Notes under the pieces: generated by a model | Database searches by the model: none | What the model saw: the letters and a program-made list of their open reading frames with translations, nothing else | What the model was told of the DNA's origin: nothing | In this document: in pieces, positions 29,295-32,353 of the stretch | Position numbering within the stretch: the first letter of the stretch is position 1 | Layout of the letters: each line of letters begins with the position of its first letter | Origin: an uncultured bacterium | GTDB taxonomy: Bacteria > Fidelibacterota > Marinisomatia > Marinisomatales > JACNKV01 | NCBI GenBank assembly: GCA_964645915.1 | Contig: CAZYDH010000001.1 | Coordinates: 76,573-140,572 of the forward strand | Reading direction: 5' to 3' | DNA length: 64,000 nt | Translations under genes and position numbers: made by a program

Positions 29295-29993
29295 CTATAA
29301 GTTTCTTTTTTCTACAAGTGAAGCATTTATAAATATTTCAACCCTTCTATTAATTTCACGCCCCTCTTCGCTTGTATTATTTGTAACCGGGCGGAATTCT
29401 CCGAATCCTGCAATAGCGAATTGTGACTCAGGAAGGTTGCTCTTTTGAAAAAGAATCCGCATAATCGACTGTGCTCTCGCTGCGCTTAATTCCCAATTAT
29501 TCCTGTAATCAGATCCTTCAATCAATGGAATATTATCAGTGTGCCCCTCTATTCTAATTTCTACGTTCCAATCCAATCCCATTCTATCATAATCTTTTAA
29601 CCACTTTTCATAAGCAGAGACTTTTTGTAAATGAAAAATAGTTAAGTTGGAAATTGCTTTTGAAATGACCTCTAATTGAGATTGGAAAAGAGGAAGAGGC
29701 TCTGCTTTTCCCAAGTCAAACATATTAGGATTATTTAATGTTAAACGAATACCTTTTGTGTCCTGTGAAATATGGAAAGAATCAATATCAAATTGTGAGA
29801 TTACATCCGTTAGTTCATGTGAGCTTTCATCTAAGCACTTGTAAACCCAGTTATGTACTTTTGAGATATCCCCGGATCGTGTTATTAATGTCATAATAAA
29901 AAAACAGATAAGGAGAGTGGCAACATCCCCGTAAGAAAGAAGCCAGGCTCCGCGGGCGCGCTCAGAAAGCGATCGTTTAGTTGTTATTGCCAT
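29295..29993 (-). CDS. MotB/OmpA-family stator-like protein (retains TM aspartate)
   Basis: 232 aa. The N-terminal TM WLLSYGDVATLLICFFIM carries Asp23 (GAT, 29925-29927). The C-terminal OmpA-like peptidoglycan (PG)-binding motif is NWELSAARAQSIMRIL...INRRVEIFI. It overlaps the upstream paralogue by 17 nt. Confidence 0.8.
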   Translation of the reverse strand: MAITTKRSLSERARGAWLLSYGDVATLLICFFIMTLITRSGDISKVHNWVYKCLDESSHELTDVISQFDIDSFHISQDTKGIRLTLNNPNMFDLGKAEPLPLFQSQLEVISKAISNLTIFHLQKVSAYEKWLKDYDRMGLDWNVEIRIEGHTDNIPLIEGSDYRNNWELSAARAQSIMRILFQKSNLPESQFAIAGFGEFRPVTNNTSEEGREINRRVEIFINASLVEKRNL

Positions 29994-30693
29994 TTAATGA
30001 AACCATTTGTGCATTAATATAGATCTCTACGCGACGATTTTCTTCAAGGTTATCTTGATCGCGCAATGGATGAAAAGGACCATACCCGGCAATTGAAAAT
30101 AGGTGATATGGTAGCTGTAGTTTCTCTTGTAACAACGCCATTACATTGCCTGCGCGCGCAATGCTTAATTCCCAATTATCTTTAAATCGCGTGTTGTTAA
30201 TTGTTCTGCGATCTGTATGCCCTTCAATGACAATATCCACTCTAATATCTTTGTTGATACTGTTTAGATATTGAATTTCTTGAGAATATCGAGAAGGTAT
30301 TTGTTCTAACCTCAGCGTGTGAATAACTTCTACAACAGAATTGATATAAGGCTCAAAGTCAGTTTTAATAATATCATCCCCAGAGTCAAACATGGAAACA
30401 TTTTTGGAATTAATCGAGGCATCTACAATTGTAGAGGGAATAAGAAGCTTGACACCTTTTGTTCCCGTGTTTTCAACATGAAGCCAGTTTAGTTCTTTTT
30501 GGTGTTTTTCATACAGAACACGTATATATATATTATTTTTTAATAGATCAGCAACGCGAAATTTAGATTCTACAGCTTCTTCAGCTTTAAAAACGAAAAA
30601 GATGAAAAAAGCCAACAGAGCTGTAATCAGCGAAGCGTAAGTTAGCATCCACCGATGGTTTTTAGATGATCCGCTAGACTTGTTTTTTATCAT
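29977..30693 (-). CDS. MotB/OmpA-family stator-like protein (TM aspartate replaced by serine)
   Basis: 238 aa. The N-terminal TM WMLTYASLITALLAFFIFF has Ser21 (TCG, 30631-30633) at the Asp position. The OmpA-like motif is NWELSIARAGNVMALL...ENRRVEIYI. A 4-nt overlap links it to the MotA-like gene. Confidence 0.8.
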   Translation of the reverse strand: MIKNKSSGSSKNHRWMLTYASLITALLAFFIFFVFKAEEAVESKFRVADLLKNNIYIRVLYEKHQKELNWLHVENTGTKGVKLLIPSTIVDASINSKNVSMFDSGDDIIKTDFEPYINSVVEVIHTLRLEQIPSRYSQEIQYLNSINKDIRVDIVIEGHTDRRTINNTRFKDNWELSIARAGNVMALLQEKLQLPYHLFSIAGYGPFHPLRDQDNLEENRRVEIYINAQMVSLNGNNN

Positions 30694-31514
30694 GATATAT
30701 TTCTAAAAACATCCCTGGAGTCTTTATCGATAAATGTGATTAATTTTTCTTGAATCATCATCCAATGTTCTTTTTGATGAAGACCAATAATTCCAGTCTT
30801 TATCATTTCACAGACATGAACTTCTTCGTTTGTGTGATTTTGTAGTTTGCCCGCAATTGGAATAAAAAACAAATTAGAGAGTAGGACTCCGTAAAATGTT
30901 GTGACCAATGCAATTCCCATATTTTTTAATAAACCTTGAAGAGGATCACTGAACTGATTTGCAAAATCTGAAACAGAACTACTTGTTGCTTCACCGTGCA
31001 TCATCAAAATGAGCCCCATAACCGTTCCCAGAAGACCAAAAGCAGGAGCATAGGAACCCATATTAAAAAACAATTCATGTCCAGATTGATGGCGTTTGAT
31101 AAGATTTTGTAGTTCGTTATCTAAGAATTTTTCCAGACGAACTTTATCTTTTTCAATAATTGCGTATTCTAACCCGGTTTGCATATATTGTTCTTCGAGG
31201 CTTGGTAATTCTTTTTCAAGCTCTGCTAATCCTTTTTTTCTGGCCAACTTACTTAAATCAACAAAACGGTGAATTAAAGATATCGGATCTTGTTGGTTTT
31301 TTCCTAAAAAGGCATTCCCTGCAATTTTGAATAGCTGAGCAACTTGAGAAAGTTGATAGTTCACAAGTGTTGCGGCAAAGGTGCCGCCTAAGACAATGGC
31401 TAATCCTTGTAATTGGAAAAATGTTGAAGGAACACCGCCCGTGGCACTGTCGAACATTCCAAAGCCGATTAAAAACAGTCCAGCAATTAATCCAAAAATA
31501 GTTGATAGATCCAT
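30690..31514 (-). CDS. MotA/PomA-type proton (ion) channel protein
   Basis: 274 aa with four TM helices. The conserved segments are YAPAFGLLGTVMGLI and TTFYGVLLSNLFFIPIAGKL, with both signature prolines present. Confidence 0.85.
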   Translation of the reverse strand: MDLSTIFGLIAGLFLIGFGMFDSATGGVPSTFFQLQGLAIVLGGTFAATLVNYQLSQVAQLFKIAGNAFLGKNQQDPISLIHRFVDLSKLARKKGLAELEKELPSLEEQYMQTGLEYAIIEKDKVRLEKFLDNELQNLIKRHQSGHELFFNMGSYAPAFGLLGTVMGLILMMHGEATSSSVSDFANQFSDPLQGLLKNMGIALVTTFYGVLLSNLFFIPIAGKLQNHTNEEVHVCEMIKTGIIGLHQKEHWMMIQEKLITFIDKDSRDVFRNIS

Positions 31515-31534: not shown

Positions 31535-32353
31535 TTAGTTCTTTGTGTTCTTTTTGGATAATATCGTATTAACGGATTGAAAAATTGATTTTTCTTTTTC
31601 CGAAAGATTGTCGTATCCAATTTGATTAATTTTGTTTAAAAGACGTAAAAGAGTTTTTTCACGATCAATAGAGGCTTGATCTTTCTTTTCACTCCATTGA
31701 TGTTTCAATCCGAGTATAAATTTTCTAAATGAAAAAGAAGTCTTTTTCCATTTCCAATTTGATTTTAAATAAAAATATCCAATGATCATACCGGACAAAT
31801 GAGTTAAGTGGCTGATGTTAGAATTAGAGCCCCAGGATGAATAGAGAGCAAGAAGCCCAATAAACAGCACAAACCATTTGACCTTAATTGGGATCACAAA
31901 ATATAATAAAACCGTTCGATTGGGGAAGATTAAACCATACGCTAAAAGTATACCATATATTGCTCCACTGGCACCGATCAAAATCAAATGAGAATTTGAA
32001 AGATTAAAGAGGAGCCAAACGAGACCGGACCCGACACCGGTTATGAAATAATATTTGATAAACTGGTTCTTTCCCCAAATGGATTCTAATTCAGAACCAA
32101 ACATCCATAAGATTAACATGTTGATCGCAAGATGCCAAATATTCCCATGGATAAACATATAAGATACGGGTTGCCATAACATGGGAAGAACTGCTCTGGG
32201 AGAAAGTCCGAATTTCGAAGAAAAATCCAAAGATAAAAGAATATCGAAAAGAAAAAGAACAGCATTTATTCCAATGAGGATCTTTATTGCTTCAGGAAAA
32301 TATTTAGGTTTCCATGAAAATTGTCCGTGTTGGGACTGGAATTGATATCTCAT
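31535..32353 (-). CDS. rhomboid family intramembrane serine protease
   Basis: 272 aa. Motifs FIHGNIWHLAINM, the catalytic GASGAIYG, and the histidine helix HLTHLSGMIIGYF. There is a C-terminal cytoplasmic extension. Confidence 0.85.
   Translation of the reverse strand: MRYQFQSQHGQFSWKPKYFPEAIKILIGINAVLFLFDILLSLDFSSKFGLSPRAVLPMLWQPVSYMFIHGNIWHLAINMLILWMFGSELESIWGKNQFIKYYFITGVGSGLVWLLFNLSNSHLILIGASGAIYGILLAYGLIFPNRTVLLYFVIPIKVKWFVLFIGLLALYSSWGSNSNISHLTHLSGMIIGYFYLKSNWKWKKTSFSFRKFILGLKHQWSEKKDQASIDREKTLLRLLNKINQIGYDNLSEKEKSIFQSVNTILSKKNTKN

Follow-up and report, generated by a model that had tools for sequence, protein, structure and literature searches.

What would a bacterium in which no flagellum is found do with a flagellar-type stator that has two different stalk proteins, one of them lacking the aspartate that binds the driving ion? 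The question is raised by three adjacent genes in a 64,000-nucleotide stretch of DNA (the window; positions 76,573 to 140,572 of contig CAZYDH010000001.1) from an uncultured member of the Marinimicrobia (Fidelibacterota in the GTDB lineage), whose 1.93-Mb genome is 96% complete. The genes are here called A, B1 and B2, and their positions are given in Table 1. The open reading frames lie exactly where the first-pass annotation of the window had placed one MotA-like gene and two overlapping MotB-like genes.

An aspartate-less MotB paralogue in a conserved module

The A protein contains a MotA_ExbB domain (PF01618, 5.5e-22). B1 and B2 each contain a MotB_plug domain (PF13677, 5e-08 and 2.2e-07, respectively) and an OmpA domain (PF00691, 2.8e-09 and 7e-14), and all these matches are above the Pfam cut-offs. 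Both B proteins have the architecture of MotB and PomB, in which an N-terminal transmembrane (TM) helix and a plug precede a C-terminal OmpA-like domain, and the peptidoglycan-binding motif described earlier (NWELS.AR and NRRVEI) is present in both, as is EGHTD. The ion-binding aspartate of the TM helix is found in B2 and is missing from B1. In HMMER alignments, Ser21 of B1 and Asp23 of B2 fall under the channel aspartate of the MotB chains from Bacillus subtilis (6YSL) and Clostridium sporogenes (6YSF). The TM segment of Escherichia coli MotB, IAYAD32FMTAMMAFFLV (bioRxiv 10.1101/2023.03.05.530362), gives the same alignment of both residues with Asp32. The first-pass annotation had read a serine in B1 and an aspartate in B2 at this position, and had named a misaligned serine, with an aspartate one turn away, as grounds for refutation. 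Codons and alignments agree on both residues, and the B1 TM helix (WMLTYASLITALLAFFIFFVF) contains no Asp and no Glu, so that no acidic residue lies one turn away.

The module is not a local oddity. Nine families of Marinimicrobia contributed 47 complete A-B1-B2 modules and a Thiomicrospira locus one more, and the gene order is unchanged in all 48. The channel position of B2 is Asp in 48 of 48. That of B1 is Ser in 26 modules (23 with TCN codons and three with AGY codons), Ala in two and Asp in 20, the latter all from one family. The pairing of Asp with Ser, which had been put forward as something to look for in orthologous operons, is thus conserved. B1-type genes occur in about 48 of 301 genomes of the phylum (about one sixth), each with an adjacent B2-type gene except at contig ends. 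Across the 48 aligned modules, the pattern W..TY..LLT..LAFF in the TM helix of B1 shows 90% conservation or more and the motifs EGH.D, NW.LS.AR and NRRVE are kept by both B proteins, while the plug region that follows the TM helix differs between B1 and B2. B1 and B2 have similar rates of nonsynonymous substitution (dN); the synonymous rate (dS) is saturated in most pairs, and the single computable B1 pair gives a dN/dS of 0.16. The conservation of B1 and its B2-like dN thus indicate a working protein rather than a decaying copy. As judged from their sequences, B1 and B2 are separate, ancient clades under purifying selection.

A profile search of 1.84 billion representative sequences recovered about 20 clusters (50% identity) in the B1 clade, nearly all of them without the aspartate (Ser, Ala or Gly), and the next-best matches after this clade are Asp-bearing MotB proteins. 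All named members from beyond the Marinimicrobia belong to the Thiomicrospiraceae/Thiotrichales, including Thiomicrorhabdus immobilis. A B1 search of genome contigs returned just two distant, irrelevant loci. In the module of Thiomicrospira sp. XS5 (L021:6377-9406), B1 has Ala; the genes follow glyQS, a HAD hydrolase gene and a PlsC-type acyltransferase gene in a housekeeping run, outside any flagellar cluster.

In the B-protein tree, B1 forms one clade (96% SH-aLRT support) and B2 another (99%), and together they belong to a well-supported group with a third, single-copy MotB type of the Marinimicrobia. A gammaproteobacterial subclade lies inside each of the B1 and B2 clades. The duplication thus came before the module, travelling as a unit, spread between Marinimicrobia and Thiomicrospiraceae. 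In a tree of concatenated A, B1 and B2, the Asp-type B1 proteins are confined to one subtree, whose nearest outside neighbors have Ala (GCC) and Ser (TCT), and three B1 proteins with AGY-encoded Ser fall inside it. At least two changes at the B1 channel position are needed on this tree, and both TCN and AGY Ser codons occur. Rooting with the gammaproteobacterial outgroup, the branch of which is very long, favors, as the shortest account, an ancestor without Asp and a single regain by way of Ala, on a B1 base that is poorly resolved. Whichever the direction of change, the channel position is free to vary in B1 and not in B2.

Proposed stoichiometry of the stator unit

The asymmetry of Asp and Ser would fit a heteromeric B stalk as well as an Asp-less B protein with a separate role. 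Because B1 and B2 are strictly linked and overlap, the B2 aspartate is invariant, the B1 aspartate is dispensable and the B1 helix is tightly conserved, we lean towards a mixed stalk in a stator that works outside a flagellum, a tentative choice to which we give slightly less than an even chance; its stoichiometry, one-site mechanism and partner are what we infer. In this reading the three genes would form one operon for an ion-driven stator unit with two unlike stalk proteins, and five A subunits would surround one B1 and one B2 (A5:B1:B2). Asp23 of B2 would be the only ion-binding aspartate of the unit, and the other pore position would be taken by the helix of B1, which is conserved but non-ionisable. 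Both proteins would anchor the unit to peptidoglycan through their OmpA-like domains. Ion flow past the single aspartate would then turn the A ring, which would push on a non-flagellar partner. The likeliest partner would be the FliG-like protein of an envelope machine encoded elsewhere in the genome by an orphan MotAB/FliF-like/FliG-like operon, for which the module would serve as a second, alternative stator. The overlaps of A with B1 (ATGA) and of B1 with B2 (17 nt) suggest that translation of the three genes may be coupled. A scan for promoters and terminators found fewer sites in the real sequence than in shuffled ones, and no operon boundaries were drawn from it.

Several points weigh against the mixed stalk. 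E. coli MotB proteins with a mutated Asp32 are non-functional and dominant-negative, and a unit with a single aspartate might therefore not turn at all. No conserved neighbor links the module to the FliG-like operon; a distance of 7 kb separates the two in one family, and here they are on different contigs. The module is found in flagellated families as well, where it may act as an accessory flagellar stator. Finally, two homodimeric units are realistic: in Aquifex aeolicus, whose motA/motB1/motB2 operon is the only such operon studied, chimeras of either MotB1 or MotB2 with the E. coli periplasmic region function with the single MotA and drive a flagellum (PMC4525482). In the Marinimicrobia module, A5:B2:B2 would then be the working stator and A5:B1:B1 an ion-dead unit competing for the same binding sites, in the role of brake, placeholder or static anchor on the peptidoglycan. 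B1 retains all that is needed for assembly and for peptidoglycan binding, and in one family B1 and B2 both carry Asp, as would be expected if each formed its own unit. However, the upkeep of a dead unit is hard to explain given the overlapping, co-translated genes, the strict 1:1 linkage to B2 and the presence of the module in two phyla, and separate homodimers give no account of why B2 never loses its aspartate while B1 does. We regard separate homodimers as unlikely, though they are the main rival of the mixed stalk. The Aquifex motA/motB1/motB2 operon has the same layout of a single MotA gene and a pair of MotB genes with OmpA-type anchors. Its two MotB TM regions are 97% identical and Asp-bearing, whereas the B1 and B2 helices differ, only B2 has Asp and no flagellum is present here; the module is not of the Aquifex type.

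B1 could also stand outside the pore as a membrane-anchored stator accessory with a role like that of MotY or FliL, A5:B2:B2 being then the entire motor. The loss of the channel residue and the B1 plug region, unlike that of B2, would agree with such a role. Against it, the MotB pattern W..TY..LT..LAFF is nearly intact in the B1 TM helix and one lineage has Asp exactly at the channel position, both of which fit a pore helix, and we hold this arrangement to be highly improbable.

Current models of 5:2 motors (MotAB, PomAB, ExbBD and TolQR) have two equivalent aspartates that take turns. If the mixed stalk is real, a conserved unit with one aspartate would test the need for both sites, the cost in torque and the saving of ions. 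We found no paper in the literature on an Asp-less MotB paralogue or on a mixed MotB stalk. Paired stalk proteins have been predicted for TolQ-like motors, but these are Asp-bearing (PMC12204202).

Motor class of the A subunit

The A protein aligns over its full length with flagellar stator proteins, at 5e-36 with MotA of 6YSF (residues 7-272) and at 4e-28 with PomA of 8BRI. An alignment-based AlphaFold2 model, with a mean predicted local distance difference test score (pLDDT) of 79, replaced a single-sequence model of pLDDT 43. In this model, cytoplasmic helices are predicted between TM2 and TM3 at residues 55-70, 77-94, 96-105 and 109-120, and a continuous helix at 124-178 would correspond to an unbroken TM3. 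An expanded cytoplasmic domain, with at least four short helices in the interval from TM2 to TM3, and an unbroken TM3 are features given for the flagellar 'FIT' class, here in its four-helix type (PMC12505986). In a Foldseek search with the model, the first 23 ranks are flagellar stator chains with TM-scores of 0.8-0.9 (8UCS, 8BRD, 6YSF), and ExbB and TolQ chains follow at E-values of at least 0.01 and TM-scores of at most 0.58. Both signature prolines noted earlier in the MotA-like protein, P157 in TM3 and P219 in TM4, are invariant in 46 A homologues, as is E100, and R92 is at least 90% conserved. R92 and E100 are spaced by 8 residues, as are R88 and E96, the rotor-contact Arg/Glu pair of PomA. 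On the strength of the full-length MotA/PomA alignment, the modelled fold, the Foldseek ranking and the conserved R92/E100, the module is a flagellar-type stator, similar to PomAB and MotPS, and not a motor of the AglRQS or TolQR type. The TM3-TM4 periplasmic loop of A (window positions 30945-31010, residues ~169-190) exceeds that of the solved MotA and PomA chains by about 14 residues. With a pLDDT of 47, this loop alone is modelled with low confidence; it is partly conserved in the family (LL.GMG).

The PomA5PomB2 and MotA5MotB2 complexes of Vibrio (8BRD/8BRI), C. sporogenes (6YSF/8UCS) and B. subtilis (6YSL) share with the module the A fold, A length, prolines and Arg/Glu pair, as well as the B layout of one TM helix, plug and OmpA-like peptidoglycan domain. 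The module differs from them in its two unlike B genes, one without the channel aspartate, in the lack of a flagellum, and in the longer A loop. It also scores far below the curated NCBIfam equivalog cut-offs for MotA, PomA, MotP, MotB, MotD and MotS; A scores best with the MotP equivalog, where it reaches 174 bits and the cut-off is 394. These wide misses indicate a distinct subfamily.

The first-pass annotation had likened the arrangement to one-A/two-B motors such as AglRQS. This comparison did not hold beyond the gene count, which the module shares with AglRQS of Myxococcus and Bdellovibrio gliding and with exbB-exbD1-exbD2 operons. In those systems A is of the TolQ/ExbB type and B of the TolR/ExbD type without an OmpA domain, whereas here A has the PomA/MotA fold with a rotor-facing charged pair and the B proteins are of the MotB type. 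A motor of the AglRQS, TolQR or ExbBD type was rejected: the TolQ model matches A only at E 0.002, the ExbB and TolQ chains rank low in Foldseek as given above, and B1 and B2 have no PF02472 match. The Zorya proteins ZorAB were also considered, a ZorA long C-terminal tail (about 700 aa) and partner genes of the ZorC/ZorD type being looked for. A has only 274 aa, its ZorA match is insignificant (E 0.0086), no ZorC/ZorD-type partner is present nearby, and the ZorB matches of the B proteins reflect general MotB similarity only.

Genome context and a candidate rotor

The whole 96%-complete genome yielded no match for FlhA, Flagellin_N or Flg_bb_rod (the rod/hook family), which answers the question, left by the first-pass annotation, of whether a flagellum is encoded. 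The genome carries three MotA/ExbB-family genes: A, an ExbB gene followed by two ExbD genes, and a second MotA gene on another contig, C3. The description of the module as lacking flagellar context stands as regards the flagellum itself and fails as regards rotor-like genes, since an orphan operon on C3 encodes, in order, a CarboxypepD_reg protein, a tetratricopeptide repeat (TPR) protein, MotA, an Asp-bearing MotB, a FliF_C-like protein of 524 aa and a FliG-like protein of 311 aa. The further statement that the window itself is free of flagellar, Tol and Exb genes agrees with the placement of the FliG_C, ExbD and other MotA_ExbB and OmpA matches, all on C3; chemotaxis genes, also said to be absent, were not searched for. 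Like the module, the orphan MotA-MotB-FliF-like-FliG-like operon provides a stator of flagellar type in a phylum whose members are mostly without flagella. The two are different loci: the orphan operon has just one MotB, which bears the Asp, and rotor genes of its own, while no rotor gene adjoins the module. ExbB-ExbD1-ExbD2 is a second one-A/two-B motor operon of the same genome, and both ExbD copies keep the TM aspartate, unlike B1.

The rotor-contact pair kept by A makes the FliG-like protein the best candidate for the partner of the module, and such a partnership is plausible. A FliG-type match is nearly universal in the order. Across the phylum it was found in 133 of the 140 genomes with a B1/B2-type stator match and in 86 of the 161 without one, the relatives among them not being independent, and this co-occurrence is consistent with a link between the two but no proof of it. 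Families with FlhA also have a stronger FliG match (E ~1e-42, against ~1e-20 for the FliG-like proteins). In the closed genome of Fidelibacter multiformis, a MotAB/FliF-like/FliG-like operon is followed 7 kb downstream by the module, with Ser in B1 (L063, G067:C1:128000-147500), and a GAF/HD-GYP-like protein gene and other unrelated genes lie in between. F. multiformis, the type strain of the phylum, is a cultured, non-motile diderm with a 2.79-Mb genome (PMC11652737). FlhA had no match in four further module-bearing genomes from four genera, F. multiformis among them. The presence of the stator in bacteria without a flagellum, including the one cultured member of a phylum abundant in the ocean, opens the function of flagellar-type motor parts to experiment. 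Taken to its fullest, the proposal describes a 5:1:1 rotary motor occurring in nature with one ion site per unit, apparently switchable between one and two sites, since one lineage has Asp in both stalks, old enough to be shared with the Thiomicrospiraceae and driving a non-flagellar FliG-type rotor in non-motile bacteria. We consider it doubtful as a whole, though worth stating.

Flagellated families of the same order carry the module together with a separate MotB within the flagellar cluster. That some related flagellated families have the module would suit the view that B1 and B2 are ordinary duplicated flagellar stators, or the decaying remnant of a lost flagellum. The tests contradict this view: FlhA, rod and flagellin have no match in this genome, the flagellated relatives have the separate MotB of their flagellar cluster, and B1 is intact, with a dN like that of B2, in 48 modules and an old clade. 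We give it hardly any weight.

OmpA-family domains number three in the whole genome, in B1, B2 and the MotB of the orphan operon, and no Pal or other OmpA-type anchor was detected in the whole genome of this diderm. The lone ExbB-ExbD1-ExbD2 set probably serves TonB-dependent receptors. With the presence of the module in a non-motile cultured species, these observations would suit an ion-driven envelope tether that works without a FliG-type rotor, as Tol-Pal or Ton systems do, and organises a Pal-less envelope by energised binding and release of peptidoglycan. Such a tether would have no need of the full flagellar-type cytoplasmic domain and Arg/Glu pair kept by A if there were no cytoplasmic partner, and the module is present in only about one sixth of the sampled genomes of the phylum; a tether is distinctly improbable to us.

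The genome also encodes an SprA-type translocon of type IX secretion and 42 proteins with the Por_Secre_tail sorting domain; their sites include C17:7396-8730 and two on the contig of the window (C1:82853-83095 and C1:96980-97219). GldM_1st had no match in this genome or in the 151 searched from the phylum, in a search that had no positive control and does not imply the absence of GldLM/PorLM. The module as a general type IX secretion motor was rejected, being too rare in the phylum.

Table 1. Positions of the stator module, its channel residues and gene overlaps in the window, and of two related operons on contig C3.
Feature	Position	Strand	Basis or location
A, channel protein of a MotA/PomA-type stator, 274 aa	30690..31514	(-)	PF01618, fold, conservation
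B1, MotB-like stalk protein without channel Asp, 238 aa	29977..30693	(-)	MotB_plug and OmpA, alignment, tree
B2, MotB-like stalk protein with channel Asp, 232 aa	29295..29993	(-)	MotB_plug and OmpA, alignment
Ser21 of B1, codon TCG, at the position of E. coli MotB Asp32	30631..30633	(-)	Sequence, alignment
Asp23 of B2, codon GAT, at the ion-binding residue position	29925..29927	(-)	Translation (start ATG at 29993), alignment
ATGA shared by the stop codon of A and the start codon of B1	30690..30693	(-)	Sequence
17-nt overlap of B1 end and B2 start	29977..29993	(-)	Sequence
Orphan MotAB/FliF-like/FliG-like operon	C3:97,900-104,600 (L005:7948-14591)		Outside the window
ExbB and, after it, a pair of ExbD paralogues, each with TM Asp	C3:85,066-86,291 (L006:6863-8310)		Outside the window

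The neighbors of the module in the window are a rhomboid protease gene and an amidohydrolase-like gene. The rhomboid gene (31535-32353), on the same strand, ends 20 nt upstream of the A start. The adjacency pointed out by the first-pass annotation is thus real here, but it recurs only within the genus and in one genome of another family, and a functional link is probably absent. A neighbor analysis of 49 loci revealed no conserved partner gene at the flanks of the module, and a Peptidase_C25 gene adjoins it in one family only. In one family the module lies directly downstream of a further MotB match, about 2.4 kb away (G015:C180:34163-37894 and G029:C125:4201-7921). This match presumably belongs to a further MotA-MotB module, which would make two tandem stator operons.

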